From a virus, in UHGV virus genome UHGV-0105297: 44,197 bases of DNA. The stretch is one strand, 5' to 3'. Under the pieces are notes generated by a model. That model did no database searches, was not told the origin of the DNA, and was given only the letters and a program-made list of their open reading frames with translations. Position 1 is the first letter of the stretch, and every line of letters begins with the position of its first letter. This document shows positions 1 through 44,197 of this stretch, one piece after another. A program made the translations under genes and the position numbers.

Positions 1-600
1 CCAGCCGATGACACCACCGTGCCGCCAACGCCTGCGGTCATGGAATCTGATGAAGATTTCCGCGCACGTATCCAGTTATCGCCGGAGGGATACACCACGG
101 CAGGTTCCGAAGGCAGTTATGTGTTTCACGGACTTGGCGCAAGTTCTGACGTGCGCGACATCCAGGCAATCAGCCCGGAGCCAGGCAAGGTGACCATTTA
201 TGTGTTGTCGCGCACTGGTGATGGAACTGCACCAGCCACAACACTTGATGCGGTAACCAGCACCCTGAACGGTGAAACCGTGCGCCCACTGACCGATGAA
301 GTCACCGTGCTGTCAGCAAACATTGTGAATTACACCATTGAGGCGGAACTTACTTTGTTTCCCGGCCCTGACTCTGACGTTGTGCTGCAATCGGCCATTG
401 ACGCCGTAGCCAAATATACAGAGGACCAGCGCCGCATCGGGTACGATGTCACGCTGTCTGGCCTGTATCATGCGCTGCATCAACCTGGCGTGCAGAATGT
501 CACGCTGATCTCGCCAACTGCATCACTGGTGCTGGGTGATGGCCAGGCCAGCTACTGCACATCCATCAATGTAACCGTGGCGGATGAAACTGATGTCTGA
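1..600 (+). CDS. Baseplate assembly protein J, C-terminal ~200 codons (reading frame open from nt 1; continues the ORF at 43898-44197 if the sequence is circular)
   Basis: Frame 1 is open from nt 1 to the stop at 600. Position is upstream of a gpI homolog, as in P2 (W-J-I-H). The far end of the window carries the matching N-terminal part. Confidence 0.75.
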   Translation, partial: PADDTTVPPTPAVMESDEDFRARIQLSPEGYTTAGSEGSYVFHGLGASSDVRDIQAISPEPGKVTIYVLSRTGDGTAPATTLDAVTSTLNGETVRPLTDEVTVLSANIVNYTIEAELTLFPGPDSDVVLQSAIDAVAKYTEDQRRIGYDVTLSGLYHALHQPGVQNVTLISPTASLVLGDGQASYCTSINVTVADETDV

Positions 601-1171
601 TGATTTGCTGCCGTATAACGCCACCGAAGCTGAACGAGCGCTGGCAAATACCACTGCCAGGATCAGTGACGTCCCTGTTGTTGTCCGTGAAGTCTGGAAT
701 CCTGACACCTGCCCATCAAATGTGCTTCCGTGGCTGGCCTGGGCGTTCAGCGTTGATGATTGGGATACAAACTGGACAGATGCGCAAAAGCGCAACGTCA
801 TCAAACAGTCAGTTTATTCGCAGCGCATCAAGGGAACCATAGGCGCAGTAACGCGCCAGCTTGCTGCGCTGGGGTATGACATCCAAATCCTTGAGTGGTG
901 GCAGAAGGAAACAGAAGGCCAGCCATACACTTTCGATGTTTTCATTACTTCCAGCCAGTACCCGCTAACAGCTAAGGATTACAGCAAGGTGCAGGAAGTT
1001 ATAAATACAAACAAGAACTTACGTTCACATATGGGTAATGTTCAGTTGATTGTCAGATCTACCGATAAAACAACGGCTGGCATTGTTTGCGGAACAGGGA
1101 ATGAGGTGAATTTAACTAACTATATCAATAACAGCGGCGCGATTAACGAATTTAACTTGATTTTATCATAG
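584..1171 (+). CDS. Phage tail protein I (P2 gpI-like baseplate wedge)
   Basis: 195 aa. Overlaps the J stop (ATGA-type coupling). Conserved N-terminal 'LLPYNATEAERALA...VWNPDTCP..LPWLAWAFSVD' typical of the gpI family. Position between J and the fiber genes. Confidence 0.8.
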   Translation: MKLMSDDLLPYNATEAERALANTTARISDVPVVVREVWNPDTCPSNVLPWLAWAFSVDDWDTNWTDAQKRNVIKQSVYSQRIKGTIGAVTRQLAALGYDIQILEWWQKETEGQPYTFDVFITSSQYPLTAKDYSKVQEVINTNKNLRSHMGNVQLIVRSTDKTTAGIVCGTGNEVNLTNYINNSGAINEFNLILS

Positions 1172-1179
1172 GTGATAAA

Positions 1180-3582
1180 GTGGAACTGAAAACATATTTT
1201 GCACAAGATAGCGCCGGAAATATCATACCTTCCGCGAGCGTTACTATCTACGAGTCTGGGACAACAAACATTGTTAGCGGTCTAAAAACCGCTGGTGGTG
1301 CAGATCTTAGCAACCCATTCAATTCTGAAACATCAGGTCGCATACAGTTTCGCGCACCTGATGGCATGTATGACATGTTAGTTTCCAAAGATTCAACCAT
1401 CATGCAGAAGGTTGCTATTCAATGCGTTGATTACGCAGAGTTTAAACAGACATCAGAGCAAGCCAATGATGCGGTTAACAGCATTAATGGCATGAACAAC
1501 AACCTGTTTGACCCGTTTTTTGAAATCCTTATTAACAACCCGACGCTTGGCGGTAAAACCCACATCCAAAGCGGATCGCTGGTTGCTGCATCAGGGAACC
1601 ATTCGCCGTTTGGATATCCTGCCATTGTTGCTGGGCCTGCTTCCGGTGCTATTGCTTCGCGTAATATTTGGCTGGCTGACTGCGGAATCCAGGTGGCTGA
1701 CGTCATCAATATTCATACCACAGCTTGGTATGCGAACGCTGGCGGGCGTATTGCTTACATTTTCAGGAACGCATCAGGCACGATCATTGGAAGCCAGGTT
1801 CTGGACTATGCGCAGAGCACTGGCGCAAATTCATTCACGAAGCAGTTAACTGTTCCAGAAACTGCCGTTCGCCTTGAGGTTCGCGTTGAAAATACAGCTA
1901 ATGCTGGTTCCATCGAGATCGCATTAATTCTGGTAAGCAAGCAGTCAGCGGCAAACTATCCAGCCGTTCCTGTGCGCCCTGAATCGCCTTACCCGATTCC
2001 TGCCGGTACTAACTCGGTAGGGACTGCGGCCATTCAAAAACAAGCCGTAACCGTCGATAAGGCCAACTTTTTCGTGCCTGGTAAAAACTTATTCGATAAG
2101 TCAGCCGCGACGCTTGACTCATACGTTGATTACACCACTGGAACCATTAAAGCCAATGCCACTTATGCCGCCTCTGACTTTATCGCAGTGACGCCGGGTA
2201 ACACTTACACGCAGGGCTATTCCCACCAAACTGCGTACTACGATGCGAACAAAGCCTATGTTTCTGGCGTGAACGTAGCAACTTCACCGACAACCCCAAG
2301 GGCGTTGGTCATTCCTGCTGGCGTAGCTTTTGTGCGAATGACGGTGTTGAAAACAGGCCTTGACACAATGCAATTTGAAGCCGGTGCAGAGGCTACAGAT
2401 TACCAGGCGTACAATCTGTATCTTGATTCATCGCGCATTGACCCATCAATCGCGAACCAGGGTGCAGAGCAGCAGTATGTGGAACGAGCTTACCAGGTCC
2501 GCGTTGGGCGAATGAAACTTAGCCAACTGGCATCATCAGTTTCGGCGATCCTGAATATTGGCTTTATCGGTGACTCATGGACCCAACTGGCAACACGCTA
2601 CACGCAGCCTTTAGCCAATGCATTACGTAAAACTTTTGGTAGCGGGCCTGGGATCGGCTGGGTTTCTTTCGGACGTCACAACACATCAGCGAGCATCATT
2701 AATGGCAGCGTTTTTTCAACTGGTAACCTGGCCACGCAGTTCACCTGGTCTGCCGGTTGGCAGTTCAGCTACAGCGGAACCAAAAACCCGACAAATAGCA
2801 GCCCTGACACGGCGGTTGTAACGTCATCGACAGTTGGCGACGTACTGACCGCAACCGTGCCAGGAACAGCAAATGGCGGATGGTCAACGTGTAGGCTTGG
2901 CTATGTTGGAACTGCTGACGGCGTGATCAGATACAAATGGGATAACGGCGCATGGACTAACTTGAATGTCCAGGGCAGCGGCCTGTTGTTCACGGACATC
3001 AACCCGCCTGCCACAATTGGCGCGTCAAACGTTCTTACCATTGAAGTGGTATCAGGCACCGTGTCACTGTGCGGGATTAACTGTATCTCTACTGGCGCAG
3101 GTGTGCGGTTTTATAAACTCGGTGCTTCTGGTTCGAGCATTGCAAGCTGGCTGACGATGGACCAGGCAGCATTCACCGCAGCACTGACAGAGCTGGCGCT
3201 TGATACTGTGGTGTTACTGTTCGGAACCAACGATCAGCGAATTACTGGTGGCGCATCCGCCTTTGAAACGAACATGCGCTCTCTGATTGCGCGCGTAAAA
3301 ACTGCATTACCGGCGGCTGACATTATGATCGTTATGCCGTGTGAGAATACGCAAGCGGGCCAGCAATCAACAATGGCAAATATGGCAAAACGGGCGCAGA
3401 AGGTTGCTAAGGAATTAAACTGCACATTCCTTAACCTGCAATATATTTTCGGTGAAAACGTAGCCGATTATGCGAATGGTTCTAACCACTCATGGTTCGC
3501 AAGTGACGGCATTCACCCTGACCCGTCAACCGGCGGATACCTGATTAAAGACGCAATTTATCGCGCGCTGGTCAATCGATAA
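1180..3582 (+). CDS. Tail fiber / tailspike protein (800 aa) with C-terminal SGNH/GDSL hydrolase (esterase) domain
   Basis: Long ORF directly after gpI. The C-terminal ~270 aa carry SGNH blocks: 'GFIGDSWTQ' (block I, GDS), 'LLFGTNDQ' (block III, GxND) and 'DGIHP' (block V, DxxH). Base composition is lower in GC than the neighbouring genes. Confidence 0.65.
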   Translation: MELKTYFAQDSAGNIIPSASVTIYESGTTNIVSGLKTAGGADLSNPFNSETSGRIQFRAPDGMYDMLVSKDSTIMQKVAIQCVDYAEFKQTSEQANDAVNSINGMNNNLFDPFFEILINNPTLGGKTHIQSGSLVAASGNHSPFGYPAIVAGPASGAIASRNIWLADCGIQVADVINIHTTAWYANAGGRIAYIFRNASGTIIGSQVLDYAQSTGANSFTKQLTVPETAVRLEVRVENTANAGSIEIALILVSKQSAANYPAVPVRPESPYPIPAGTNSVGTAAIQKQAVTVDKANFFVPGKNLFDKSAATLDSYVDYTTGTIKANATYAASDFIAVTPGNTYTQGYSHQTAYYDANKAYVSGVNVATSPTTPRALVIPAGVAFVRMTVLKTGLDTMQFEAGAEATDYQAYNLYLDSSRIDPSIANQGAEQQYVERAYQVRVGRMKLSQLASSVSAILNIGFIGDSWTQLATRYTQPLANALRKTFGSGPGIGWVSFGRHNTSASIINGSVFSTGNLATQFTWSAGWQFSYSGTKNPTNSSPDTAVVTSSTVGDVLTATVPGTANGGWSTCRLGYVGTADGVIRYKWDNGAWTNLNVQGSGLLFTDINPPATIGASNVLTIEVVSGTVSLCGINCISTGAGVRFYKLGASGSSIASWLTMDQAAFTAALTELALDTVVLLFGTNDQRITGGASAFETNMRSLIARVKTALPAADIMIVMPCENTQAGQQSTMANMAKRAQKVAKELNCTFLNLQYIFGENVADYANGSNHSWFASDGIHPDPSTGGYLIKDAIYRALVNR

Positions 3583-3599
3583 TTAATAGGGCTAATCAG

Positions 3600-4985
3600 A
3601 TGGCTTATTCAACGATACACACCAATTATGGCCTGCAACGACTGGCGCAGGCTGAATCAACAGGGATTGCAATCAACCTTACGCAAATGGCGGTAGGTGA
3701 TGGAAACGGGAATGCCGTTACCCCGGACCCTACGCAAACTGCGCTAGTTAGGGAGCGGTTTCGCGCCAGTATCAACCGCGTTTATCAGTCTGCTGATGAT
3801 CCGCTGCGGTTCACTGCTGAACTGGTTATTCCGGCGAGTGCTGGCGGCTTCACCCTGCGTGAAGTCGGTGTGTTTGATTCAGATGGTTCGCTTTTCGCCG
3901 TAGGCAACCTGCCTGCAACCTACAAACCGACAGACAGCGAAGGCGCCTATTCTGACACGGTTGTGCGCCTTGACTTCATGGTGAGCAATGCCAGCACCAT
4001 CACGCTACAGATTGACCCGAACGTTGTGGTAGTAACGCAGCAGTGGATCAGCAATAACGTGACTGCTGCCACTATCATTCCTGGTGGCACCACGGGGCAG
4101 TTGCTTGCTAAGAGTTCAAACGCTGATGGCGATTATGTTTGGCAAGATCCGACAGTCGCAAACGTTGTGGTTGATATTGTGGAGGACCGCCAGACGCTGG
4201 CGGCAGGTCAAACAGTTGTTGACCTTGTTGAAACCATCACCTACGGCCTGGCCGTGTATATCGAAGGTATCCGCCTTAACCGCGGTTCAGGCGTTGACGA
4301 ATGGCAGCCACACCCAACAATTTCAACGAGGCTGACGCTTGGCAAATCATACACTGCCGGGACCAACTTCCTTGGGGTGAACAATGAGCCAGCAGGTAGC
4401 GCGCCAGCACCTCTGGAGCAAAGCCAAAACCTGGCTGACGTTCCTAATAAGCCGACGGCACGCACTAACCTGGACGTGTTCAGCAAGGCGGAAACCAGGC
4501 AAATGGCACCAGCCGGGCTGGTGGCTACGTTCGCCAGAAACACTGCGCCTTCTGGATGGTTGAAAGCGAATGGTGCAGCCATCAGCCGCACAGCTTACGC
4601 TGATCTTTTTGCGGCAATTGGCACAACGTTTGGCGCTGGTGATGGCATTAACACCTTCAACCTTCCAGACTTACGCGGCGAATTTATCCGCTGCTGGGAT
4701 GATGGGCGCGGGGTTGATGCTTCACGGGCATTCGGCGGCAGGCAGAAAGGCACGATTGTTGGCGCGAAGGATGACAACAACGACGCTGCCAACCCGTCAT
4801 TTTTGGCCAGCGGAAATTCCGTTGATTATGGGAGTGATGCGGTTTCGTTTGCTGATTACCCCGGCATCAAAGCTTATTACCTGAACCTGACCGATAAAAC
4901 GGCTGTTGATTCATCAGGCCAAAATCAGTTTTTCAGTGTCACACGCCCGCGCAACGTTGCTCTGCTGGCGTGCATTAAATTCTAA
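3600..4985 (+). CDS. Tail fiber protein, P2 gpH-like N-terminal domain plus C-terminal tail-collar domain
   Basis: The N-terminus ('MAVGDGNG...ELVIPASAGGFTLREVGVFD..GSLFAVGNLPATYKP') matches the conserved gpH N-terminal attachment domain. The C-terminus 'FNLPDLRGEFIRCWDDGRG' is the phage tail-collar motif. Confidence 0.8.
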   Translation: MAYSTIHTNYGLQRLAQAESTGIAINLTQMAVGDGNGNAVTPDPTQTALVRERFRASINRVYQSADDPLRFTAELVIPASAGGFTLREVGVFDSDGSLFAVGNLPATYKPTDSEGAYSDTVVRLDFMVSNASTITLQIDPNVVVVTQQWISNNVTAATIIPGGTTGQLLAKSSNADGDYVWQDPTVANVVVDIVEDRQTLAAGQTVVDLVETITYGLAVYIEGIRLNRGSGVDEWQPHPTISTRLTLGKSYTAGTNFLGVNNEPAGSAPAPLEQSQNLADVPNKPTARTNLDVFSKAETRQMAPAGLVATFARNTAPSGWLKANGAAISRTAYADLFAAIGTTFGAGDGINTFNLPDLRGEFIRCWDDGRGVDASRAFGGRQKGTIVGAKDDNNDAANPSFLASGNSVDYGSDAVSFADYPGIKAYYLNLTDKTAVDSSGQNQFFSVTRPRNVALLACIKF

Positions 4986-6203: not shown

Positions 6204-7637
6204 ATGGCAGATCAATTTTTGCATGGCGTGGAGGTGCTGGACATTGATTCCGGTTCACGCCCGATTCAGACAGTAAAATCCAGCGTCATCGGCATTGTTG
6301 GCACCGCGCCGAATGCTGACGCAACCAAATTTCCACTGAACACCCCGACGCTGATTGCTGGCAGCCGCCTGGAAGCGTCATACCTTGACACCGTTGGCAC
6401 CGGCGAAGGCACCCTGCCTGCTGCACTGGATGCCATTTTTGACCAGATCGGCGCGGTGGTTATTGTCATCCGCGTTGAAGAAGGCGACACCGACGCCGAA
6501 ACGCTGGCCAATATCATTGGCGGCACCAACGCCACTACCGGACAATATGAAGGCGTACAGGCGCTGCGTGCTGCCGAAGCCGTCACCGGCTATTCTCCGC
6601 GCATCCTGTGCGTTCCTGGCTTCACCGGTAGCCGCATTCAGGGTGGCGTAACGGCCATCACCATGACAGCGCAGGGCAGTGGCTACACCAGTGCGCCAAC
6701 GGTTGCCATCACAGGCGGCGGTGGCACCGGTGCAACCGCACACGCTGTGCTTGGCACTGGCGCTGATGCAGGCAAAGTGACCAGCGTTGTCATCGACAAC
6801 CACGGCAGCGGCTACACCAGCGCGCCTACTGTGGCGTTTTCTGGCGGTGCTGGTACTGGCGCAGCAGCAACGGCATCCTTTGGCGTGGCAGCAAACGCGG
6901 TCGTTTCCGAACTGATTGGCATTGCTGACAGCCTGCGAGCCGTCATCATCGCTGACGGCCCTAACACCACCGACGCTGACGCCATCGCTTACCGTGGCGA
7001 CTTCGGCAGCAAACGCGTTTTCGTGGTTGACCCGGCTGTGCTGATTCTGGACGGCGACGGCAACACCGTTGTTGACCCGGCATCCGCGCGCGTAGCTGGC
7101 CTGATTGCCTGGGTAGATAACAACCTGGGTTTCTGGTGGTCACCGTCTAACCAGACCATTAACGGCATTCAGGGAACGGCGCGCCAGATTGATTTCGTGC
7201 TGGGTGACGCTTCCAGCCGTGCGAACCTGCTGAACGAAAACGAAGTGGCTACCATCATTCGCCAGGACGGTTTCCGCCTGTGGGGTAACCGCACCTGTTC
7301 GAGCGATCAGAAATGGGCATTCCTGTGCGTGGTCCGTACCGCTGACATCATCAATGACAGCCTGGCGCGTAACCACCTGTGGGCTGTTGACCGTGGCATC
7401 ACCAAAAATTACGTCACTGACGTTATTGAAGGTGTGAACAACTATCTGCGATACTTAACCAGTATCGGTGCCATCCTGGGCGGTTCCTGCTGGGCTGACC
7501 CGGACCTGAACACCGCAGACCAGATTTCACAGGGCAAAATCTTTTTTGATTTTGATTTCACGCCAGCGTACCCGGCTGAACATATTACGTTCCGCAGCCA
7601 CCTGGTTAACGATTATGTGCAGGAGATTTTTGACTAA
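6204..7637 (+). CDS. Contractile tail sheath protein (P2 FI-like)
   Basis: Sheath-size ORF before the tube gene. RBS AGGAA lies 8 nt upstream of ATG 6204 (the ORF track starts at 6180). Contains an internal tandem ~40-aa repeat ('GSGYTSAPTVA..GG.GTGA.A') not expected in a minimal sheath. Confidence 0.8.
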   Translation: MADQFLHGVEVLDIDSGSRPIQTVKSSVIGIVGTAPNADATKFPLNTPTLIAGSRLEASYLDTVGTGEGTLPAALDAIFDQIGAVVIVIRVEEGDTDAETLANIIGGTNATTGQYEGVQALRAAEAVTGYSPRILCVPGFTGSRIQGGVTAITMTAQGSGYTSAPTVAITGGGGTGATAHAVLGTGADAGKVTSVVIDNHGSGYTSAPTVAFSGGAGTGAAATASFGVAANAVVSELIGIADSLRAVIIADGPNTTDADAIAYRGDFGSKRVFVVDPAVLILDGDGNTVVDPASARVAGLIAWVDNNLGFWWSPSNQTINGIQGTARQIDFVLGDASSRANLLNENEVATIIRQDGFRLWGNRTCSSDQKWAFLCVVRTADIINDSLARNHLWAVDRGITKNYVTDVIEGVNNYLRYLTSIGAILGGSCWADPDLNTADQISQGKIFFDFDFTPAYPAEHITFRSHLVNDYVQEIFD

Positions 7638-8143
7638 TGGCCGCTCGCGACGTTCGCAAGAACCTAAACCTGTTCGTTGATGGCCGGGGATACGCTGGCC
7701 AGATCGAGGATTTCAACGCGCCGAAACTGACGCTGACCACGGAGGAATTCCGGGGCGGCGGCATGAACGCGCCGATTGATCTCACCACCGGCCATGAAAA
7801 ACTGGTCACTGACTTTCAACTGATTTCGTATGACAAAGACGTTTTAGCACTGTGGGGCGTCACCGAAGGGAACCAGATTCCGTTCGTGGCCCGCGAAGCG
7901 CTGGAATCCTTTGACGGCACCGTGACGCCGGTGGTTCATACCATGCGCGGGAAGATCACCGAAATCGACCCGCAGACCAGCAAGGCAGGCGAAGTGCCGC
8001 GCCTTAAGGTCACGATGTCGCTGGTTTACTACAAACTTCAGCACGGCCAGAGCACCATCCACGAAATCGACGTGGAGAACATGATTCAGGTCATCAACGG
8101 CGTTGATGTTCTGCAATCTATCCGTTCTGCGCTGGGCATGTAA
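7637..8143 (+). CDS. Tail tube protein (P2 FII-like)
   Basis: 168 aa. Start overlaps the sheath stop. Position and size match the FI-FII-E-T synteny. Confidence 0.75.
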   Translation: MAARDVRKNLNLFVDGRGYAGQIEDFNAPKLTLTTEEFRGGGMNAPIDLTTGHEKLVTDFQLISYDKDVLALWGVTEGNQIPFVAREALESFDGTVTPVVHTMRGKITEIDPQTSKAGEVPRLKVTMSLVYYKLQHGQSTIHEIDVENMIQVINGVDVLQSIRSALGM

Positions 8144-8200
8144 TTTCTTCGGCCAGTCATTTGGCTGGCCATTTTCACAATCATTGTTGAGGCGATAAAA

Positions 8201-8491
8201 ATGGCTGCAAAGAAACTACCTGAATATTTGGTACTGGCTGCTGATGGTTCTTACATCGACATTACTTTGTCACGCGCGCTGGACGTCGATGGCGCGAAGA
8301 TCACCGCGCTGCGCATGCGTGAACCGACTGTTGCCGACCAGGAAACCGCTGTTGATGCGGGTGGCAGTGACGCATCACGAGAAATTTCCATGTTCTCAAA
8401 CCTTATGGAAATTACGCCAGACCAGATGCGTAAACTACCGATTCGAGACTACAAGCGCGTTCAGGAAGCGTTTTTAAATTTTACCAACTAA
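8201..8491 (+). CDS. Tail assembly chaperone gpE-like
   Basis: 96-aa ORF between the tube and tape-measure genes. Acidic small protein as in P2 E. Confidence 0.55.
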   Translation: MAAKKLPEYLVLAADGSYIDITLSRALDVDGAKITALRMREPTVADQETAVDAGGSDASREISMFSNLMEITPDQMRKLPIRDYKRVQEAFLNFTN

Positions 8492-8624
8492 GCCCGGAAT
8501 ACATCCGTTCGGGCGTTCTGGCGCTGGCCAGCCACACAGGCTGGTCATTGACAGAGATTCAACGGCTGCGGGTAAGCCGGTTCATATGGTGGATTGAGGG
8601 GCTTCCCAAACAAAATGGCAATTA
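8201..8624 (+). CDS. gpE' -1 frameshift extension product (putative; shift at A AAT TTT, 8476-8482)
   Basis: Slippery heptamer AAATTTT (also GTTTTTA at 8470-8476) sits just before the E stop. The -1 frame is open for ~47 codons to a TAA at 8622-8624, overlapping the tape-measure start. This is the classic E/E' arrangement. Confidence 0.4.
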
Positions 8625-10702
8625 ACAAAGCGCTATCGGCAACCATCACCATTGGCGGTGCCATTTCAAACACTTTAAAGGGTGCATTTAGCACCCTTGA
8701 CAAGTCATTCAATAATATCGGTTCTTCGCTATCAAACCTTGAGAAGAAAAACAAACTTCTTGAGCGATCAATTAATACCTTCGGCAGAGAAGGTAAAAAC
8801 GTTGAATCATTACGTGAAAAATACAAAGCAAACGCCGCCGCAATAGACAGGCTGCGAGAATCATATGAGCAACTTAATGACCTGCGAAACCAGTCAGAAG
8901 AAAATGATGGCGCACTTGATCGCTACAAGGGGCAGATTCTTGAGATTGTCGCGCTGGGGACATCTTTTGCCGCGACAGTAAAACAGGCGATTGATTTTGA
9001 ATCAACAATGGCCGACATCAAAAAGGTTGTTGATTTTACATCGCCTGATGGACTCAAAGAAATGGGTAAAACCATTCTTGATATGTCCAAAGTTCTACCA
9101 ATGACTGCTGACGATATTGGTAAAATTGTTGCCGCTGGTGGTCAGGCCGGTATCGCTACCAAAGAGCTTACCGCGTTTGCAGAATCCGCCATCAAAATGG
9201 GTGTGGCGTTCGATATCAGCGCCGATGAAGCTGGCCAGGCAATGGCAGAAATGCGCGCAGCGTTCCGCATGACGCAGCCGCAAGTAAACGTTCTGGCAGA
9301 TAAAATAAACTACCTGGGCAACAACACAGCCGCATCAGCCAAAGACATCATGGAGATTGTGCAGCGCATCGGGCCTCTGGGCGAAGTAGCTGGCGCTGCT
9401 TCCGGTTCGATTGCGGCTATGGGCGCAACCCTGCGCGGCATGGGCGTGCAGAATGAGATCGCCGCCACCGGCATCAAAAACCTGTTGCTTACCCTGTCAT
9501 CCGGCAAGGCAGCCACCAAAGGACAGGTGGCAGTGTTTAAACAGCTTGGCTACACATCAACGGAAGTGGCCAAATCAATGCAGCTTAACGCCGATGAAAC
9601 GATCCGCGTTATCCTGAAAAAGCTGTCAAAACTGCCGAAGCACGCACAGGCCGCCGCACTGACGCAACTGTTTGGTAAAGAGGTTGTGGGCAGTATCGCC
9701 CCACTGCTGACCAACCTTGACCAGTTGCAAGCCAACCTGGCGCTGGTTGGTGATAAAACCAAATACGCCGGTTCGATGGAAAAAGAATACCAGGCGCGTG
9801 CGGCGACTACCGCAAACAGCCTGATAATTTTCAGAAACCAGATTACTGCTTTGGCAATCACTGTGGGTTCTGTTCTGCTTCCTGCCGTCAACAGTGTGCT
9901 GCAAACGGTAGGGCCGTGGATTGGGCAGGTAACTGACCTTGCATCAAAACACCCGGCAGCAACCAAAGCCATTGTGGCGACGGTTGGAGCGCTGATCACT
10001 TTAAGGCTGGTCACTTTTTCTGTTGGGTATGCGTTCACGTACATGAATAAAATCGTGCTTGGTGTGCGCACAACTCTGGCAGTCATCCGGGCGCAGATGG
10101 TCCTGACATCAGCCACAATGACAACTGCGGCTACAGCGATCAGGATTGTTGGAATGGCGTTCCGATTTGTTGGGCGTAGCATTGTATGGATGGGGCGCAT
10201 GTTACTGCTTAACCCCATAGGCCTGGCCATAACCGCCATCGCCGGTGCGGCATTCCTGATTTATGAAAATTGGGACAAGTTAAAGCCTTGGTTTATCCAG
10301 TTGTGGAAGGACATCACCGACATTTTTGACAAGGCCGTTGGCAAAATCATGGGAATGATTGACGGTATTAAGGGTAAGTGGGATGACTTCAAATCCACCG
10401 TTTCTGACGGTGTTGGCGACGCCTGGCAGAAAACGAAAAACTTTTTCAGCGATCCGTTTGGCACTGATGAACCAGGCAGCAAGCCAGCCGCCGCAGCACC
10501 TGGACTGACGCCACCGCCAGCGCCGCCGATGGCCAACCGTGGTGGCAACACGTACCAGGACAACAGCCAGAACACATACCAAATCAATCAGCGACCTGGT
10601 GAAAGCACTGACGACCTGGCTAAAAAAATTGCAGCAGCACAGGAACGCCAGCGCCAGATCCGGCAGCGCAGCATGATGACTGACGGAGCATATCAGCCAT
10701 GA
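8594..10702 (+). CDS. Tail tape measure protein
   Basis: 702 aa, alpha-helical and Ala/Gly-rich, with C-terminal hydrophobic segments. Position after E/E'. Confidence 0.85.
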   Translation: MRGFPNKMAINKALSATITIGGAISNTLKGAFSTLDKSFNNIGSSLSNLEKKNKLLERSINTFGREGKNVESLREKYKANAAAIDRLRESYEQLNDLRNQSEENDGALDRYKGQILEIVALGTSFAATVKQAIDFESTMADIKKVVDFTSPDGLKEMGKTILDMSKVLPMTADDIGKIVAAGGQAGIATKELTAFAESAIKMGVAFDISADEAGQAMAEMRAAFRMTQPQVNVLADKINYLGNNTAASAKDIMEIVQRIGPLGEVAGAASGSIAAMGATLRGMGVQNEIAATGIKNLLLTLSSGKAATKGQVAVFKQLGYTSTEVAKSMQLNADETIRVILKKLSKLPKHAQAAALTQLFGKEVVGSIAPLLTNLDQLQANLALVGDKTKYAGSMEKEYQARAATTANSLIIFRNQITALAITVGSVLLPAVNSVLQTVGPWIGQVTDLASKHPAATKAIVATVGALITLRLVTFSVGYAFTYMNKIVLGVRTTLAVIRAQMVLTSATMTTAATAIRIVGMAFRFVGRSIVWMGRMLLLNPIGLAITAIAGAAFLIYENWDKLKPWFIQLWKDITDIFDKAVGKIMGMIDGIKGKWDDFKSTVSDGVGDAWQKTKNFFSDPFGTDEPGSKPAAAAPGLTPPPAPPMANRGGNTYQDNSQNTYQINQRPGESTDDLAKKIAAAQERQRQIRQRSMMTDGAYQP

Positions 10703-30250: not shown

Positions 30251-30257
30251 GGCATTT

Positions 30258-32895: not shown

Positions 32896-32896
32896 C

Positions 32897-34605: not shown

Positions 34606-36610
34606 CCCTTTTTCCAACCTTGATGGCATCGCCGCAGCGATCCAGCGCGCGCAACAACATTTGTTGCCGCCACCGGACATGAAGCCTTCAGAGTGGGCGC
34701 AGGAACACATCCGCATCCCTGCTGGTAACGCCGTTCCGGGGCCGCTGCGCCTGGATAACGCGCCTTACCAGCGTGAACCAATGGATATGCTGGTAGACCC
34801 GGATTGCTACCGGGTAACGCTGATGTGGGGCGCACAGGTTGGCAAAACGCTGCTGGCACTGTGCGTGCAGGCGTACTGCATCGGGGCGGAACCGTGCAGC
34901 CAGATGATGATGCAGCCGTCACAGGATGACTTGCGCACCTGGCTGGAAACGAAATTCAACCCGCTGGCGGAAGAATGCGAGCCGGTGACCAACGCCATTG
35001 CCAAACCGCGTGGCCGCGACGGCGTGAACAACCAGAAAATGAAGTCATACCCTGGCGGCTTCATGATGTTCGCCTGGTCTGGCTCGCCAAAGACCATGCG
35101 CGGGCGTTCAGCGCCAAAGATTGTTTGCGATGAGGTGGACGGATATGAACGGACGAGCGAAGGCCACCCGGTTGGCCTGCTGTGGCAGCGTTCCGCCACG
35201 TTTGGCGATCAGCGTTTCCTGCTGGAAATCAGCACCCCTACCATCAAGGGTGACAGCTACATTGAAAAGGCGTTCGAGATGGGCGATCAGCGGCATTTTT
35301 ATGTCTGCTGCCCGCACTGTGACGATCATGTTACGCTGGAATGGGAGAACGTGCGCTGGGATGGCCAGCGGGAAACCGACGCGGAAAACCTGGCGGCCAT
35401 CGAAGAACAGAAGCCGGAAACCGCGCACCTGTATTGCCCGTCCTGCGGCGCTGAGTGGAATGACGGCGAGAGGATAGCGGCTATCCGCCAGGCAGAAGCC
35501 AAAGGCGCTGGCTGGAAGGCATCCAGGCCGTTTGACGGTCACGCCAGCTACCACCTGAACGAACTTTACAGCACGTTTCGCAAGGTGCCGGCCATCGTGC
35601 GTGACTACCTGGACAAGCTGAAAACGGACGACCTGCAAACCTTCACCAACGTCAGCCTGGCGCGCACCTGGGAGGAAGAAGGCGACAAGGTTGACCCTGA
35701 CAGCCTGATGGCCCGGCGCGAGGAATACGCCGCAGCGGCACCGGCTGGCGTCCTGTACATCACCGCAGGCATTGACATGCAGATTGACCGCCTGGAATGC
35801 GAGGTGGTTGGCTGGGGCGTAGGTGAGGAATCCTGGTCGCTGGGTTATCACGTCCTGTGGGGCGACCCGCTGACGCCAGATCCGTGGGATGCGCTGGATG
35901 ACCTGCTGGCGGAAACCTACCAGCACGAAACCGGCGCAGTGCTGCCGATCATGGCCGCCTGCCTGGATACCGGCGGCACCAGCGGTTACACGCAGGCCGC
36001 CTACGACTACGCGCGCGGGCGCACCGGTCGCCGTCTGTTCGCCATCAAGGGTGTTGGCGGCTGGGGGCGTCCTATCGTCGAGAAGCCGCAGCGCAAGCAG
36101 TCTGGTAAAGACGCCCGCAAAGTGGATCTGTTTCTGGTTGGCACCGACGAAGCCAAACTGATAAACGCGCGCCGCCTGGCTAAATCGACGCCGGGGCCGG
36201 GGTATTGCCATTTCCCCGCTGACCGCGATGAGGAATGGTTTAAACAGGTCACCGCTGAAAAACTGACGGTGCGTTACGTTAAGGGCCAACCGGTTCGCGA
36301 GTGGAAGAAGCCAGACCGGGCGAGAAATGAGGCCACCGACTGCCGCAACTACGCGCTGGCAGCGCTGAAAATCATGCAGCCATCGTTTAAACGCCTTGCC
36401 GCGAAACTCGGCGTAGCCAACGACAACGCGCCACCGGAGAGGCGCGCCCGCCTGCCAGCCGTTAAGCCGGTGATGCAGCCGCAGGAAAAGCCAAAGGACA
36501 ACCCCCACGAAGAAGAAAGGCAGCCAGTAACGGAGACTAAACCGGCAAAAATCAAACGTTCCGCCAGACTTGGCAAAGGCCGTGGCGGCGGATGGGTGAA
36601 CCGGTGGTAA
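34565..36610 (+). CDS. Terminase large subunit, lambda gpA family
   Basis: 681 aa. Walker A-like 'GAQVGKT'. 'CPHCDDHVTLEW...YCPSCGAEW' zinc-finger-like segment as in gpA 'CPHCGEEQYLKF'. C-terminal nuclease region. Confidence 0.85.
   Translation: MATTRAATVTAKNNPFSNLDGIAAAIQRAQQHLLPPPDMKPSEWAQEHIRIPAGNAVPGPLRLDNAPYQREPMDMLVDPDCYRVTLMWGAQVGKTLLALCVQAYCIGAEPCSQMMMQPSQDDLRTWLETKFNPLAEECEPVTNAIAKPRGRDGVNNQKMKSYPGGFMMFAWSGSPKTMRGRSAPKIVCDEVDGYERTSEGHPVGLLWQRSATFGDQRFLLEISTPTIKGDSYIEKAFEMGDQRHFYVCCPHCDDHVTLEWENVRWDGQRETDAENLAAIEEQKPETAHLYCPSCGAEWNDGERIAAIRQAEAKGAGWKASRPFDGHASYHLNELYSTFRKVPAIVRDYLDKLKTDDLQTFTNVSLARTWEEEGDKVDPDSLMARREEYAAAAPAGVLYITAGIDMQIDRLECEVVGWGVGEESWSLGYHVLWGDPLTPDPWDALDDLLAETYQHETGAVLPIMAACLDTGGTSGYTQAAYDYARGRTGRRLFAIKGVGGWGRPIVEKPQRKQSGKDARKVDLFLVGTDEAKLINARRLAKSTPGPGYCHFPADRDEEWFKQVTAEKLTVRYVKGQPVREWKKPDRARNEATDCRNYALAALKIMQPSFKRLAAKLGVANDNAPPERRARLPAVKPVMQPQEKPKDNPHEEERQPVTETKPAKIKRSARLGKGRGGGWVNRW
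36497..36513 (+). promoter_or_regulatory. Late motif GACAACCCCCACGAAGA (copy 3), inside the terminase-large 3' end, ~100 nt upstream of the next head gene
   Basis: Perfect 17-mer. Confidence 0.45.
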
Positions 36611-36616
36611 ATCATA

Positions 36617-37156
36617 GTGACATGTTCGACGTTTCCGAAACAGATTACAGCCGGGCTGACCTTTGAAACCCGGCTGACAAGCAAAAAATATCCGCCTGCG
36701 CTGTGGTCAGCAGAACTGCTGATGCGCGGGCCGATTGCCATTAACCTGGCCGCCACGATTGACGGTGATGAATTCGTGTTCAGCGCCGACGCCAGCACAA
36801 CGGCGACGTGGGCCGCTGGCGATTACTGGTATTCTGTGCGCGTCACCAGCGGTTCAGCGGTTCAGGAACTGGAAAGCGGCCAGTTGACCGTATTACCGGA
36901 CATGGCCAGCGCCAGTTCGGGTTATGACGGCAGAACGCAGGCAGAAATTGCCCTGGCAGCCATTGAAGCTGTTCTGGCCAACCGCGCGACCAAAGACCAG
37001 GACCGCTACCGCATCAACAACAGGGAATTGTACCGCACATCCATTTCAGACCTGCTGAAACTGCGTGATTTTTACCGTGATCTGGTGAACCGCGAACGCG
37101 CAGCGAAGTGCGGAAGCAATCCATTTGGGCGCAAACTGCGCGTGGTGCTTAAATAA
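36617..37156 (+). CDS. Hypothetical head-region protein (179 aa) between terminase and portal
   Basis: Position only. No domain recognised. Confidence 0.35.
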   Translation: MTCSTFPKQITAGLTFETRLTSKKYPPALWSAELLMRGPIAINLAATIDGDEFVFSADASTTATWAAGDYWYSVRVTSGSAVQELESGQLTVLPDMASASSGYDGRTQAEIALAAIEAVLANRATKDQDRYRINNRELYRTSISDLLKLRDFYRDLVNRERAAKCGSNPFGRKLRVVLK

Positions 37157-38727
37157 TGGGATTATTTGACAGATTCAGGCGCAGTAAACCTGCGCCGCAG
37201 CCGGTTGAACAGCCGGTTGAACAGCCGAAAAAACGCGGTTTTGCGCCCAATAAGGTGGCGCAGCGCATGTTTGACGGCGCGCGCGTTGACCGACTTGGAA
37301 CCGCCTGGCCGACGCAGCCGCAAACGGCTGATGACATTATCAAGAAAAATCAGCGTGTTTTGGTGGCCCGTTCGCGTGAACAGGCCGCAAATAACGACTA
37401 CGCCCGCGAATTTCTTCGCCTGTGCCGCACAAACATTGTTGGCCCGCGCGGGATCATCTTGCAGGCCAAAAGCATGGGCAGCAATGGCACGCTGGATACC
37501 CCGGCGAACGAAGCCATTGAACTGGCGTTTGACGCCTGGGGTAAGAAACAAAACTGCGACGTGACCGGGAAACGGTCATGGCGTGAAATACAGTTATCCT
37601 GCATCAACAGCGCCGCCAAAGACGGTGAATTCATGGTGCGAATGGTGTTTGGCGCAGATGCCGGGCCGTGGGGTTTCTCGTTGCAGGTGCTGGATCCGCA
37701 GCGCTGCCCGGTGGACATGGTTGAAGATCGGCTGACGAATGGAAATTTCATCCGCTTCGGCATCGAGTTTAACCGCTACGGGCGGCCAGTGGCGTATTAC
37801 TTCCAGACCACCGATGATTCCGATGATAACTACATTTGGGCGGGGAAAGATTTCATTCGTATCCCGGCTGAAGAAATCATTCACGGTTTCGTTGAAGATA
37901 TCGTGGGCCAGAAACGCGGCCTGCCGTGGATGGCTACCGGCCTGTTTCGTCTGCGCCACCTGGGCGGCATGGAAGATGCCGCGCTGGTCAACGCCCGCGT
38001 GGGTGCCAACAAGATGGGTTTCATCAAGTGGGCAGATGGAAAAGGGCCGGAATGGGATGACCCGGAAAACTACTACGTTGAAAGCGAGCCTGGCGAATTC
38101 GAAATTCTGCCTGATGGCGCTGAATTACAGGAGTGGAACCCGCAATACCCTAACGGCGAATTTGCCATTTTCAGCAAACAGATGCTGCGCGGGATCTCCG
38201 CTGGTTTCGGCGTTGCGTATAACAATCTGGCCAACGACCTGGAAGGCGTGAACTATTCCAGCATTCGACAGGGAACGCTAAACGAGCGCGAGAACTGGAA
38301 GGAATTGCAGGAATGGCTGATTGAATCGCTGCACCAGTCCGTTTTTGATGCGTGGCTGCCGCGTGCGCTGCTGTCTGGCCGGATCACCGTCAAAGGCCGC
38401 AGCCTGAAGCCTGAACGCATCGACCGTTACAGCATGATTGAATGGCAGCCGCGCCGGTGGTCATGGGTTGACCCGCAGGCAGACGTAAAAGCCGCCGAAA
38501 CCATGAAAAACAACATGCTGCAATCGCCTGGCCGCATCATCCGCGAAATGGGTTACGACCCCGATGCAGTATGGCGCGAGTCAGCCAGCGACGTGCGCCG
38601 CATGATTGACAACTACGTTGCGCAGGGCATCAGCCAGGAAATGGCTGAAAAATTGGTGCTGCACAGCATGGGGCAGGACAAACAATTGTTGCAGGGGCAA
38701 ACCGATGAAACAAAACCGGCTGAGTAG
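37156..38727 (+). CDS. Portal protein
   Basis: 523 aa, immediately downstream of the terminase module and upstream of the protease/capsid gene. Confidence 0.7.
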   Translation: MGLFDRFRRSKPAPQPVEQPVEQPKKRGFAPNKVAQRMFDGARVDRLGTAWPTQPQTADDIIKKNQRVLVARSREQAANNDYAREFLRLCRTNIVGPRGIILQAKSMGSNGTLDTPANEAIELAFDAWGKKQNCDVTGKRSWREIQLSCINSAAKDGEFMVRMVFGADAGPWGFSLQVLDPQRCPVDMVEDRLTNGNFIRFGIEFNRYGRPVAYYFQTTDDSDDNYIWAGKDFIRIPAEEIIHGFVEDIVGQKRGLPWMATGLFRLRHLGGMEDAALVNARVGANKMGFIKWADGKGPEWDDPENYYVESEPGEFEILPDGAELQEWNPQYPNGEFAIFSKQMLRGISAGFGVAYNNLANDLEGVNYSSIRQGTLNERENWKELQEWLIESLHQSVFDAWLPRALLSGRITVKGRSLKPERIDRYSMIEWQPRRWSWVDPQADVKAAETMKNNMLQSPGRIIREMGYDPDAVWRESASDVRRMIDNYVAQGISQEMAEKLVLHSMGQDKQLLQGQTDETKPAE

Positions 38728-40729
38728 CATTATCGGCACCTATTACACCCGCGAAGCTGGCAGTAAACCGCTGCCGGATTTCAACAAAGGCGGCCTGGTG
38801 CGCACTATGGAGGTGCGCAGCTACGACCAGGAAAACCGCACCGTTGAACTGGCGTTTTCCTCTGAAATCGAGGTGGAACGCTGGTATGGCGTGGAAATTT
38901 TGGACCATTCACCGGCAAGTGTTCGCCTTGACCGTCTGCGTGACGGCGGGGCGCTGCTGGTAGACCATGACTGGAGCGATCAGGTTGGCGTTGTAGAGTC
39001 TGTCAGTATCGACGCAGACCGCCGGGGGCGGGCTGTGGTGCGTTTCGGTCGAAGCGCGCGCGCTGATGAGATTTTCAACGACATCGTTGACGGTATCCGC
39101 AAGCATGTTTCTGTTGGCTACCGCGTGTTAGCGGCACAGCTACAGGAAGTGCGTGACGAATATACGGACGTTTACCGGATCACCGATTGGGAACCTTATG
39201 AAATCTCCATTGTGAGCGTTCCCGCTGACACCACCGTGGGCATTGGCCGACAGGCTGACAACCCCCACGAAGAACAGCGCGCAGAGAAACCCAATACTGC
39301 GCAAAGTACAAAACCCGTTTCTGAGGATTCAAGAATGGAAAAAATCTTGCGCGATGCATCCGGCAACCTGGTGCGCGCATTGGTAGACGAGAATGGCAAC
39401 ATCACGCAGGTTCTGGAAATGCTGGAACGTGCTGGCGATGATGCCCGTAGCGCTGAACAGCGTGGCCGCAAGGCAGAACAGGACCGCGTGCGTTCCATCA
39501 CCGAAATGGGTGATAAGTACAACGCGCGTGACCTGGCGCTGAAAGCTGTTGCCGAAGGCACCACCGCTGAAGCATTCCAGCGTTCGCTGCTGGACCACCT
39601 GAACAAGCCGAAAGACCCGGCGCAGCCGTCTGATGGCACCCGTTCCGGTGCAAAACCGCTGTCTGAAATGCCGTCTGCCGCTATCGGCATGGATGAAAAA
39701 GACATCCGCCGCTATTCGGTGTTCAACGTCATTCGCGCCCTGGCGAACCCGAACGACGCAGCCGCACAACGTGCCGCAGCGTTCGAAATCGAGTGCAGCC
39801 ACGCCGCACAACAGCAATATGGCCGCAGCGCAAAAGGCATCCTGATCCCGGATGACGTACTTCGTGCGTTCAACGCCGGTGGTGCACCGAACACCCCGAC
39901 AGGCGCGCAGACCGGTTCCAACCTGGTTGGCACCGATTTTATGGCCGGTTCTTTCATCGACCTGCTGCGCCCGCGTACCACCATCATGCGCCTGGCTCGC
40001 ACTATGGGCGGTCTGGTTGGTAACGTCGAAATCCCGAAACAGACCGGCGGCGCAACCGCTTACTGGATCGGTGAAGGCGACGACGCCAACGAAACCACGC
40101 CGACCATCGGCCAGCTTGGTTTAAGCCCGAAAACCGTGGCAGCGTACACCGATATCACCCGCCGTCTGCTGATGCAGTCCACCCCTGACGCTGAAGCCAT
40201 CGTGCGCGGTGACCTGGTGGCAGCAATTGCGCAGGCGATTGATTACGCTGGCTACTACGGCACCGGGACCAGCAACCAGCCGCTGGGGCTGTCCAACTAC
40301 ACCGGCATTAACGCGGTTGACTTCGCAGCAGCGAACCCGACCTATGCGGAACTGGTGCAGATGGAAACCGAAATCGCGGCTGATAACGCTGACGTGAACA
40401 GCATGGCATACGTGCTGAACGCCCGTGGCCGTGGCGCTGCCAAAACCACGCCTAAATTCGCCAGCGGCACTTCGGTTGCTGATGCTGGCGTGATTTGGGA
40501 GCCGGGCAACACCATCAACGGCTACCGCGCTGAAGTCACCAACCAGGTTGATGACGGTGATGTGTTCTTTGGTAACTTCGCCGATCTGGTTGTGGGCATG
40601 TGGGGTGGTCTGGATATGACGGTTGACCCGTACAGCCTGAGCAAATCCGGCGGTCTGCGTATCGTGGTGTTCCAGGACGTAGATTTTGCTGTGCGCCGCG
40701 TGGAATCTTTCTGCATCGGTCGCAACTAA
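38705..40729 (+). CDS. Prohead protease (HK97/S78 family) fused in frame to major capsid protein with delta (scaffold-like) domain; internal in-frame restart at 39336
   Basis: The N-terminal third has a prohead-protease signature ('WEPYEISIVSVPAD'). The 39336 start has RBS GAGGA and a coiled-coil 'MEKILRDASGNLVRAL...' delta domain. The C-terminal part is HK97-fold MCP-like. No stop separates the parts. Confidence 0.6.
   Translation: MKQNRLSSIIGTYYTREAGSKPLPDFNKGGLVRTMEVRSYDQENRTVELAFSSEIEVERWYGVEILDHSPASVRLDRLRDGGALLVDHDWSDQVGVVESVSIDADRRGRAVVRFGRSARADEIFNDIVDGIRKHVSVGYRVLAAQLQEVRDEYTDVYRITDWEPYEISIVSVPADTTVGIGRQADNPHEEQRAEKPNTAQSTKPVSEDSRMEKILRDASGNLVRALVDENGNITQVLEMLERAGDDARSAEQRGRKAEQDRVRSITEMGDKYNARDLALKAVAEGTTAEAFQRSLLDHLNKPKDPAQPSDGTRSGAKPLSEMPSAAIGMDEKDIRRYSVFNVIRALANPNDAAAQRAAAFEIECSHAAQQQYGRSAKGILIPDDVLRAFNAGGAPNTPTGAQTGSNLVGTDFMAGSFIDLLRPRTTIMRLARTMGGLVGNVEIPKQTGGATAYWIGEGDDANETTPTIGQLGLSPKTVAAYTDITRRLLMQSTPDAEAIVRGDLVAAIAQAIDYAGYYGTGTSNQPLGLSNYTGINAVDFAAANPTYAELVQMETEIAADNADVNSMAYVLNARGRGAAKTTPKFASGTSVADAGVIWEPGNTINGYRAEVTNQVDDGDVFFGNFADLVVGMWGGLDMTVDPYSLSKSGGLRIVVFQDVDFAVRRVESFCIGRN
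39255..39273 (+). promoter_or_regulatory. Late motif CTGACAACCCCCACGAAGA (copy 4), inside the protease domain, 62 nt upstream of the internal capsid/delta-domain start at 39336
   Basis: Perfect 19-mer. Confidence 0.45.
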
Positions 40730-42306: not shown

Positions 42307-42872
42307 TGAACGCGAATACCGACATTGATTTAGGCGTGCTGCATGACGCCATCACCGCCGACATCAAAGCGGCGTTCCCTTCCCTGGTAACCGTGGAGTT
42401 CTACCAGGATGAACCTGAAATGCGCAAAAATCTGCCTATCCCGGCTTGCCTGCTGACGCTTTCAGAAATGGAGGTTGACCAGGAGATCGACCCCGGCACC
42501 GAACAACTGGCGGTTAATGCGACGTTTGAGGCGTATTTTCTGATTAACAGCCTGCGCACCCCGCGCGCAAAGCTGGCCATCCGGCAGAACATCGCAGCGT
42601 TCATGGCCTGGCTACGCCTGCGCCGCTGGACCAACCCGGATGACCCAAGCAAGAAACTGCCAACCGGCCCGGCTTACGTCATGGGCGGATACCCTGACGA
42701 CTTTCAGCCGGAAATTGACAAATACGAGGTGTGGCGCGTCGAGTGGCAGCAGGTCATCCACCTGGGGAACACTATCTGGACCGATGAAGGCACGACGCCA
42801 GGCAACCCGGTTTATAGCTGGTCACCTGACATCGGTTTTGGCCATGAAGAAGATTATAAGCCGATACTATGA
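42306..42872 (+). CDS. Tail completion / baseplate-associated protein (putative)
   Basis: 188 aa. ATGA-coupled to neighbours. Confidence 0.35.
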   Translation: MNANTDIDLGVLHDAITADIKAAFPSLVTVEFYQDEPEMRKNLPIPACLLTLSEMEVDQEIDPGTEQLAVNATFEAYFLINSLRTPRAKLAIRQNIAAFMAWLRLRRWTNPDDPSKKLPTGPAYVMGGYPDDFQPEIDKYEVWRVEWQQVIHLGNTIWTDEGTTPGNPVYSWSPDIGFGHEEDYKPIL

Positions 42873-43504
42873 ACAATTACGATCTGACAGAAATGAACCG
42901 CGCGCTGTCAAACATGATTCGCGTGGGTAACATCAGGGCGGTTGATGTCGCCAATGCGCGCGTGCGTGTGGCGTTTGGCGGCTGCGTCAGTGACTGGCTG
43001 CCGTGGGGAGCGTCACGCGCTGGAAACCGCCGGGACTGGACAGCGCCTAACGTTGGCGAACAGGTCATGGTGTTCTGTCCGTTTGGCGATCCGACGCAGG
43101 CGGTGGTTGGGCCGTCCATTTTTCAGGATGACTTCAGCGCACCGGCAACCAGCGCAGACCAGGACACGACAGTTTACCCGGATGGCACAACAGTTGACTA
43201 CAACAGCGCAACGAACACGCTGACGGTCACCGTTGCTGGTTCAGGTAATGTGGTCATCAACTGCAAAGTGGCTACCGTGAAGGCTGACACCAGCGTGACA
43301 ATCGACACGCCGGAAACCACCTGCACTGGCAACCTGACCGTGAATAAGAGTTTCACGATGGGCCAGGAAGGCGGCATCGCCACCATGAAAGGCAACGTGG
43401 CCATTGAAGGCGGAAGCCTTACCCACAACGGCAAAAACGTTGGCAGCACGCATACGCATGGCGGCGTACAGTCTGGCGGAAGCAACACCGCCGCACCGAA
43501 CTAA
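42869..43504 (+). CDS. Baseplate assembly protein V (central spike)
   Basis: 211 aa. OB-fold N-terminus 'RVGNIRAVDVANARVRVAFGG..SDWLPW' then a beta-helical Thr/Val-rich repeat region, characteristic of gpV. Followed by W and J. Confidence 0.8.
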   Translation: MNNYDLTEMNRALSNMIRVGNIRAVDVANARVRVAFGGCVSDWLPWGASRAGNRRDWTAPNVGEQVMVFCPFGDPTQAVVGPSIFQDDFSAPATSADQDTTVYPDGTTVDYNSATNTLTVTVAGSGNVVINCKVATVKADTSVTIDTPETTCTGNLTVNKSFTMGQEGGIATMKGNVAIEGGSLTHNGKNVGSTHTHGGVQSGGSNTAAPN

Positions 43505-43523: not shown

Positions 43524-43556
43524 TGAACGCCCGTCCGTGGGGGCATTATCGAGCCT

Positions 43557-43895
43557 ATGAACGGAACAGACGCGAACACCGGGAAACCGCTGGATGGCCT
43601 GGCGCATCTTCAGCAATCAATAAAAGACATACTCACGACCCCGATTGGCTCGCGAGTGATGCGGCGCGACTACGGCAGCCGATTGCCGCGCCTAGTTGAC
43701 GCACCAATGAACCGGGCCACGCTGATTGACCTGTACGCAGCGACCGCAGAAGCGCTGCTAACCTGGGAACCGCGTTTCAGCGTTCAGCAGGTTGTTGCCG
43801 TATCAGCGGCACCAGGGCGCGTGGAATTGATGGTCACCGGCGAATACCTGCCGGATGGCCAACAGGTAACGATTGATGGAATAGTGGTGACATAA
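43557..43895 (+). CDS. Baseplate protein W (GPW/gp25 family)
   Basis: 112 aa. 'LQQSIKDILTTPIGSRVMRRDYGSRL' matches the GPW_gp25 lysozyme-like family. Confidence 0.8.
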   Translation: MNGTDANTGKPLDGLAHLQQSIKDILTTPIGSRVMRRDYGSRLPRLVDAPMNRATLIDLYAATAEALLTWEPRFSVQQVVAVSAAPGRVELMVTGEYLPDGQQVTIDGIVVT

Positions 43896-43897
43896 TG

Positions 43898-44197
43898 GCC
43901 GGTGCATTCACCGTTGTTGATTTATCACAATTGCCAGCGCCTAACGTTGTTGAGCAGCTGGATTTTGAAACGATTCTGGCCGCAATGATTGCGGATCTAC
44001 AGAGTCGTGATCCTGATTTTACTGCGCTGGTGGAATCCGACCCCGCATATAAGATTTTAGAAGTCTGCGCCTACCGTGAATTGCTTATCCGCCAGCGCGT
44101 GAATGAGGCCGCGCAGGGTGTGATGTTGGCTTACGCTACTGGCGCAGATCTGGACCAGCTTGGCGCAAACGTAGGCGTTCAGCGCCTGGTTATCACA
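43898..44197 (+). CDS. Baseplate assembly protein J, N-terminal 100 codons (continues in frame at nt 1 if circular)
   Basis: ATG overlaps the W stop. Frame is open to the last base of the window, ending on a complete codon. Joined with 1-600 this gives 300 aa (P2 gpJ is ~302 aa). Confidence 0.8.

Follow-up and report, generated by a model that had tools for sequence, protein, structure and literature searches.

A 44,197-bp phage genome record opened inside baseplate gene J, and the likely position of its cohesive ends

Results

The two ends of the record are parts of one baseplate gene

UHGV virus genome UHGV-0105297 is a stretch of virus DNA of 44,197 nucleotides (nt), hereafter the window, whose first and last bases both lie within an open reading frame (ORF) for a gpJ-like baseplate protein. 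We hold with high confidence that the window is the full 44,197-bp unit genome of a phage whose virion DNA is linear with cohesive (cos) ends, and that its record is opened at an arbitrary point in gene J. The join of the two ends is continuous, the genome is complete, no host DNA flanks it and, in closely related strains, the DNA ends are fixed. A metagenome assembly yielded it as a circular path, and by chance the record was opened at codon 101/102 of J; arbitrary opening of a circularly assembled phage genome is a routine, ordinary property. The genes around the join are the following.

42869..43504, plus strand: gpV-like baseplate spike, 211 amino acids (aa), with Phage_base_V and Phage_spike domains
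43557..43895, plus strand: gpW-like baseplate wedge (GPW_gp25)
43895..44197, plus strand: gpJ-like baseplate gene, N-terminal 101 codons, cut by the record end (from the ORF and alignment)
1..600, plus strand: gpJ-like baseplate gene, C-terminal 199 codons and stop (from the ORF, Pfam, and alignment to PA0618 and P2 gpJ)
593..1171, plus strand: gpI-like tail protein (Tail_P2_I)
1180..3582, plus strand: 800-aa fibre/spike occupying the gpH position, with a GDSL/SGNH esterase domain at its C terminus

An ATG at 43895-43897 on the plus strand opens a frame that stays open to the last base (303 nt), and bases 1-600 are open in frame from base 1 up to a TGA stop at 598-600. Joined, the two parts form one ORF of 903 nt with a product of 300 aa, as a reading made from the sequence alone had proposed. 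That sequence-only reading was right that the N-terminal part of J is open to the record end, but placed its start at 43898 and counted 100 codons; the start is 43895, which gives 101. It also took 300 aa to be exactly the size of P2 gpJ, which in fact has 302. The order V-W-J-I-H, which it expected the join to restore, is indeed found, with the 800-aa fibre in the last position.

The joined product matches Pfam Baseplate_J with an E value of 8e-25, and at the DNA level the joined J gives one ungapped, full-length (100%) blastn piece to gene J in sixteen phage records, including those of Klebsiella phage KA2-1, Enterobacter phage Arya, and Escherichia phages ep3, ECOO78, and ECO1230-10. The check proposed by the sequence-only reading, an alignment of the joined product to gpJ homologues, shows no discontinuity at the junction: together with five intact homologues the protein fills 300 columns with zero gaps, and the join point, between residues 101 and 102 (LVIT|PADD), falls within an invariant stretch. 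Residues 7-295 match the R-type pyocin baseplate protein PA0618 (PDB 6u5b; E 2e-82) straight across the join. PA0618 is a tailocin protein, unlike the phage J of the window, and was used only as a solved-structure yardstick for continuity. Identity to P2 gpJ is 53%, and the best-conserved block spans the join. Gene J is properly one 300-aa product, not two fragments.

Assemblies opened at different points yield the same unit

An exact look-up of the gpW protein found it on 18 public contigs, none longer than 50 kb. One of these, contig NODE_150_length_44252_cov_14.49 of European Nucleotide Archive assembly ERZ1303825, carries gpW at the window's own coordinates. It has the same sequence as the window, except that it repeats window positions 1-55 as its last 55 nt. 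Because 44,252 minus 55 is 44,197, the window is this contig less a 55-nt k-mer overlap; the join is therefore not a product of chance. A terminal k-mer overlap is the usual sign of a circular path in de Bruijn assembly. The first and last 55 nt are likewise identical in scaffold_181 (ERZ28582095), also of 44,252 nt, which is on the other strand and opened at window 18236/18182; the parts of it that were compared, among them 20,339 nt running through 44197|1, have 0 mismatches to the window. Contig k119_61762 (ERZ27235240) is opened at window 19726 and has 44,316 nt, that is, 44,197 plus 119; for this contig only the first 3,448 nt were compared (no mismatch), and its 119-nt overlap was deduced from its length. 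Assemblies with k=55 and k=119, opened at different points, thus yield the same 44,197-bp unit. The exact 36-nt junction pattern had no match in IMG/VR.

The window is also collinear with isolate genomes. Positions 34003-44196 correspond to positions 1-10212 of the 43,668-bp genome of KA2-1, and window position 1 onward corresponds to KA2-1 10214 onward, indicating that nothing was lost or duplicated at the join. Collinearity extends to HeidiAbel Bas97. The claim of a complete phage genome opened inside J was thus upheld by the overlap in the source contig, by the differently opened assemblies, and by collinearity with complete isolate genomes.

As for gene content, the window holds 60 intact protein genes, all of phage type, and one transfer RNA (tRNA), with 92% coding sequence. 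Gene calls on identical public contigs span essentially the whole genome and have phage-type functions only. No host flank or host gene is present anywhere in the 44,197 bp, in agreement with the earlier statement that bacterial flanking genes are lacking.

These results bear on two other explanations of the record. According to the first, the window would be a prophage, excised or integrated in tandem, or else part of a chromosome, the 55-nt overlap being an assembly artefact and the ends matching by coincidence or through a repeat. An integrase, an adjoining tRNA-Arg, and arm-like repeats are present, as such an origin would have it, and according to the BASEL authors some bacteria do carry bona fide prophages of this viral group. 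We nevertheless consider it extremely unlikely. The window has no host genes, the join restores a conserved gene exactly, the k=55 and k=119 assemblies agree in unit length despite their different openings, and the public contigs that carry the exact gpW, integrase, SSB, or TerL protein are all 50 kb or shorter. Moreover, a cI-like repressor is absent, no integrated copy of the int/attP module was found in 5,426 complete Escherichia coli genomes, and in a pattern-based integrase scan of 185,579 species-representative genomes the sole match was 28% identical, in a Kistimonas metagenome-assembled genome. The second explanation, a phage-plasmid kept as a circular episome, has a negligible probability. 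The circular assembly and a ParB HTH-domain protein at 13699-14604 speak for it. Against it, there is neither a ParA partner nor a plasmid replication initiator, a 3.2-kb stretch across the join has no match in 72,556 PLSDB plasmids, and relatives were isolated as plaque-forming lytic phages.

Contig and record ends map a 13-nt cohesive end

Although the record is cut in J, several lines of evidence place the virion ends elsewhere, next to the terminase genes.

34003..34015: 13-nt cohesive end (cos) GGGGCAGTGCCAC, with a presumed 5' overhang; ~10 kb upstream of where the record is cut
34081..40729, plus strand: lambda-type packaging and head genes, comprising Nu1-like TerS, GpA-type TerL (34589-36610), head-tail joining, portal, and a protease-capsid fusion

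The KA2-1 record begins at the base equivalent to window 34003, and the GenBank record of ECOO78 has the 13-mer GGGGCATTGGTCC at both termini; the ECOO78 paper states nothing on termini. As for metagenomic contigs from strains 91-97% identical to the window, two (L010 and L011) begin at GGGGCAGTGCCAC, at the equivalent of window 34003. In another contig (L009), a 14-nt Illumina adapter tail (CGCTCTTCCGATCT) is fused to the base equivalent to 34003, which shows that this end is a physical DNA terminus. On the other side, contig L022 ends exactly at GGGGCAGTGCCAC, at the equivalent of window 34015; contig L019, also tried as the right cos end, stops 65 nt short, and L022 was used instead. The presence of the 13-mer on both left-end and right-end contigs is as expected from end-repair of a 5' overhang. 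Whereas this evidence for fixed ends is direct for the 91-97% identical strains, it is indirect for the identical genome, for which it consists of a break in a Logan contig. This contig (ERR1190869_860), from a conservative assembly, has 43,981 nt and 100% identity in a comparison of 4,004 nt; all that it lacks is 33901-34116, the stretch around cos.

The genes just downstream of the site encode terminase subunits with the Pfam families Phage_Nu1 (TerS) and GpA_ATPase and GpA_nuclease (TerL). An enzyme of this Nu1/GpA type would cut at 34003-34015 and leave a 13-nt 5' overhang. The virion DNA would then be linear and non-permuted, and after injection its ends would anneal to give a circular intracellular form. 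Some reads spanning the joined cos would let assemblers close the circle. We conclude that virions most likely contain linear DNA whose 13-nt 5' cohesive ends lie at 34003-34015; that the overhang has 5' polarity and that this very genome is cut at 34003-34015, we infer. The sequence-only reading had predicted cos ends near 33940-34030, and the mapped cohesive end lies within that region. Several public contigs carry a call for a 36-codon ORF at 33912-34022 that crosses cos and would be intact only in circular or concatemeric form; this ORF is probably spurious.

Several points weigh against a complete genome with fixed cohesive ends. The assemblies of the exact sequence are perhaps from one sample; they differ in assembler, k-mer size, and opening point, but their data may not be independent. 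The closure and the cos of this genome were both judged from assembled contigs. The KA2-1 record (PQ571296) runs 58 nt past the right-end 13-mer (43611-43668); this tail was not found elsewhere in KA2-1 or in the window, and is probably an artefact of the record. Finally, the Arya announcement states, from polymerase chain reaction (PCR) and restriction digests, that the DNA is terminally redundant and circularly permuted (PMC5754474). This would agree with headful packaging, in which virion DNA is circularly permuted and terminally redundant and has no fixed ends, and with which a circular assembly alone would also be compatible. Headful packaging is very unlikely here, considering that contigs of several samples end at the same base, one of them with an adapter, that the ECOO78 record has a 13-nt repeat at both termini, that the terminase is of the Nu1/GpA (lambda cos) type, and that cos ends were reported by PhageTerm for the relative Mano (PMC7849712). 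Since annealed cohesive ends would give the same PCR and restriction results, we think that the permutation claim for Arya is probably wrong where this group is concerned.

The description of the genome as circular or circularly permuted therefore needs to be divided. It is circular as an assembly and as an intracellular form, but the ends of the virion DNA are fixed and the permutation is one of the record only. Similarly, "entire replicon" is correct in that the genome is whole, the word replicon being fair only for the intracellular circular form. In practice, the record can be used as a complete genome and re-opened at cos (34003). In addition, the cohesive end of this group has been fixed at single-base resolution from public contig ends alone, in contradiction to the permutation claim for Arya.

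Other genes and variable regions

The remaining genes form the following groups.

3600..4985, plus strand: second tail fibre, with Phage_tail_fib and Collar domains
6204..12430, plus strand: P2-type tail genes (sheath, tube, E, tape measure, U, X, D)
13699..14604: ParB HTH-domain protein
17516..21983, minus strand: leftward early genes (SprT-like, SSB, small ORFs of which one is Xis/HTH-like, AAA_24 ATPase, exonuclease VIII-like)
22313..31422, plus strand: replication and accessory genes (DEAD helicase, VRR_NUC, primase at 26167-28470, Vut_1 transporter-like at 28519-28992, others)
32297..33915, plus strand: lysis cassette (two holins, endolysin, spanin)

Between gpI and the collar fibre, at window 1180-3582, strains whose gpW is identical (L007-L014) have differing genes. 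The variants in this slot are of 800 aa (with GDSL esterase), 723, 688 (CBM_4_9), 696 (pectate-lyase-like), 945, and 720 aa, and the slot looks like a hot spot for swapping receptor-binding proteins. The Vut_1 (PF02592) gene, annotated as a YhhQ-type queuosine-precursor transporter, lies inside a segment, 28339-30257, that does not align to KA2-1. A 68-aa ORF and the helicase gene border noncoding DNA at 23734-23883 that has counterparts between the genes of Dhillonvirus siphoviruses (HK578, EP23, ityhuna, and others); this DNA matches HeidiAbel at a different place (36717-36936), and it has no Rfam match.

An intact integrase without a cI-like repressor

The lifestyle of this group has been called enigmatic. 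Lysogeny has not been seen in it, and only part of its members have intact integrase and cI genes. In the window, the relevant features are these.

15551..15627, minus strand: tRNA-Arg(UCU), intact, beside the integrase in relatives too
15628..15931: attP-like intergenic region with repeats and a hairpin
15932..17143, plus strand: tyrosine integrase, 403 aa, with Arm-DNA-bind_3 and catalytic domains
21984..22312: divergent control region, without a cI-like repressor

The integrase has the catalytic residues R252, K277/279, R345, H368, and Y378; in its HxxR motif, as in relatives, Arg takes the place of His. Its identity to the HeidiAbel integrase, described as "seemingly intact", is 83%. The attP-like region contains two pairs of the 12-nt repeat ACCRTACCCTAA (15669-15692 and 15893-15916), 224 nt apart, with three exact matches compared to 0.47 expected by chance, and a second repeat family, GCTAAGTG. 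A hairpin (15751-15765; CCGC-ATTCTAA-GCGG on the minus strand) sits halfway between the two pairs of 12-nt repeats; its loop, which reads CTTCTAA in relatives, mimics the anticodon loop of tRNA-Arg(UCU), the gene for which is 125 nt away. The whole spacer between tRNA and integrase (~300 nt) is well conserved in PT1, MQ-4, Alux-21, and HeidiAbel. The hairpin may be a crossover core aimed at the anticodon loop of a host tRNA, with the phage tRNA as a replacement copy. A role of tRNA-Arg(UCU) as a supplier for AGA codons is unsupported, AGA making up only 26 of the 803 Arg codons. The scans described above turned up no attL or attR from which to define the attP core.

In HeidiAbel, a cI-like gene (29140-29682) sits between the exonuclease and helicase genes. 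A tblastn search with HeidiAbel CI gave no match in the window, where the locus is a 232-nt spacer. The genome fits a state in which the integrase has been kept and the repressor lost. The presence of an integrase does not make it a demonstrated temperate phage, and it could also be that this phage, having no repressor, retains integrase, attP-like DNA, and tRNA-Arg for some function apart from lysogeny. Accordingly, the integrase, putative attP, and arm sites listed by the sequence-only reading are present as sequence features, but attP function is unproven, cI is missing, and no integrated copy was found in the genomes scanned. The window thereby adds a member from a human metagenome, with an intact integrase and no cI, to a small phage group whose lifestyle is debated.

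A widespread cassette resembling transfer-messenger RNA

Just after the integrase stop codon lies a noncoding element that came to notice through short matches of very high identity (at least 99%) to hundreds of unrelated phages. Neither the tail fibre nor the tRNA is the source of these matches; they fall on a cassette resembling transfer-messenger RNA (tmRNA).

17156..17325, plus strand: tmRNA-like RNA cassette, ~170 nt, noncoding, with a tag frame at 17213-17248

The tag frame (GCA AAC GAA GAA CGT TTT CTG ATG GCG GCG TAA TAG) encodes ANEERFLMAA. As in tmRNA tags, it opens at a GCA resume codon and ends with hydrophobic residues (...AA/VA) and a stop. Tags of other copies are ANDDVVLMAA, ANEEMYLAVA, and ANDNTFLAVA, and the differences between copies include synonymous ones. 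None of the tag strings was found in the searchable literature. Scores of the cassette against the Rfam tmRNA families are sub-threshold (20-27 bits, with gathering scores of 47-84), and ARAGORN calls a "permuted tmRNA" only at lowered thresholds; at default settings it detects no tRNA-like domain (acceptor stem, T arm, CCA) in the window copy. Nor is there space for one within the cassette boundaries as set by comparison with KA2-1 and HeidiAbel.

Evidence for structure comes from covariation, minimum-free-energy folding being uninformative (z-score -0.6). The structure that follows the tag, with five helices and two pseudoknots, has 98.1% of cells paired across ten copies, as compared to 30-44% in slid controls. 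Compensatory changes occur in 11 of its 32 pairs, and none of 500 shuffles reached these values.

KA2-1 and HeidiAbel have no such element at the same spot, which indicates that it behaves as a cassette of ~160 nt. Copies were found in 719 of 50,697 phage records, from many unrelated families and almost always unannotated, as well as in 137 of 5,426 E. coli genomes. In lambdoid prophages, such as one of E. coli 55989, the cassette lies downstream of Q, and in HK620 it lies between pR'/qut and tQ. These copies and those of Kuttervirus, Ithacavirus, Buchananvirus, Carvajevirus, and Sashavirus phages encode one or another of the three other tags given above; in announcements of Kuttervirus genomes, the number of tmRNAs is given as zero. 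We tentatively propose, with more doubt than confidence, that the cassette represents an undescribed, phage-borne, and horizontally mobile class of tmRNA without a tRNA-like domain. Its RNA might act in, or interfere with, trans-translation of the host. Followed up further, the cassette could matter more than the finding on topology, and it deserves a study of its own.

Comparison with known phages

The relatives of the window belong to the subfamily Iiscvirinae, genus Jilinvirus, which are small myoviruses of 41-44 kb combining lambda-type packaging and head genes with P2-type tails. KA2-1, Arya, HeidiAbel Bas97, PT1, ep3, ECOO78, and ECO1230-10 share with the window this size, the gene order, and a 300-aa gpJ, and gene order and hallmark proteins are common to the window and the classified members of the group. 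As in the window, these relatives have a tRNA-Arg beside the integrase locus and a lysis cassette directly before cos. The window is an enterobacterial myovirus of the Iiscvirinae/Jilinvirus group, i.e. an ordinary, new member of a known group. About 76% of it can be aligned to KA2-1, an unclassified phage, with 70-90% identity in the individual segments. As estimated from alignment, overall similarity to KA2-1 is near or below the 70% genus line, and lower for Arya, HeidiAbel, and ep3. By sequence comparison, the window ranks as a new species-level genome, falling well short of the 95% species line and lying at or just outside the genus line.

The window differs from its relatives in several respects. 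Its fibre, with the GDSL esterase, is unlike the receptor-binding fibre of KA2-1 and the other relatives. Its integrase allele is nearer to those of HeidiAbel and PT1 (83% aa identity) than to that of KA2-1 (54%), whereas the cI-like repressor of HeidiAbel and PT1 is missing. As extra cargo, it has the Vut_1-like gene and the tmRNA-like cassette.

Two classical phages share parts of this plan. The V-W-J-I-H-G operon of P2 has the same gene order, its V is equally long (211 aa), and members of its I, U, X, and D families are found in the window; in contrast, the head, terminase, replication, and lysis genes of the window are not P2-like, and what occupies the H position there has no relation to P2 H. 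With phage lambda, the window shares a Nu1-like TerS and a GpA-type TerL right downstream of the site, fixed ends, and a short G+C-rich 5' overhang, which would be 13 nt long in the group of the window and is 12 nt in lambda.

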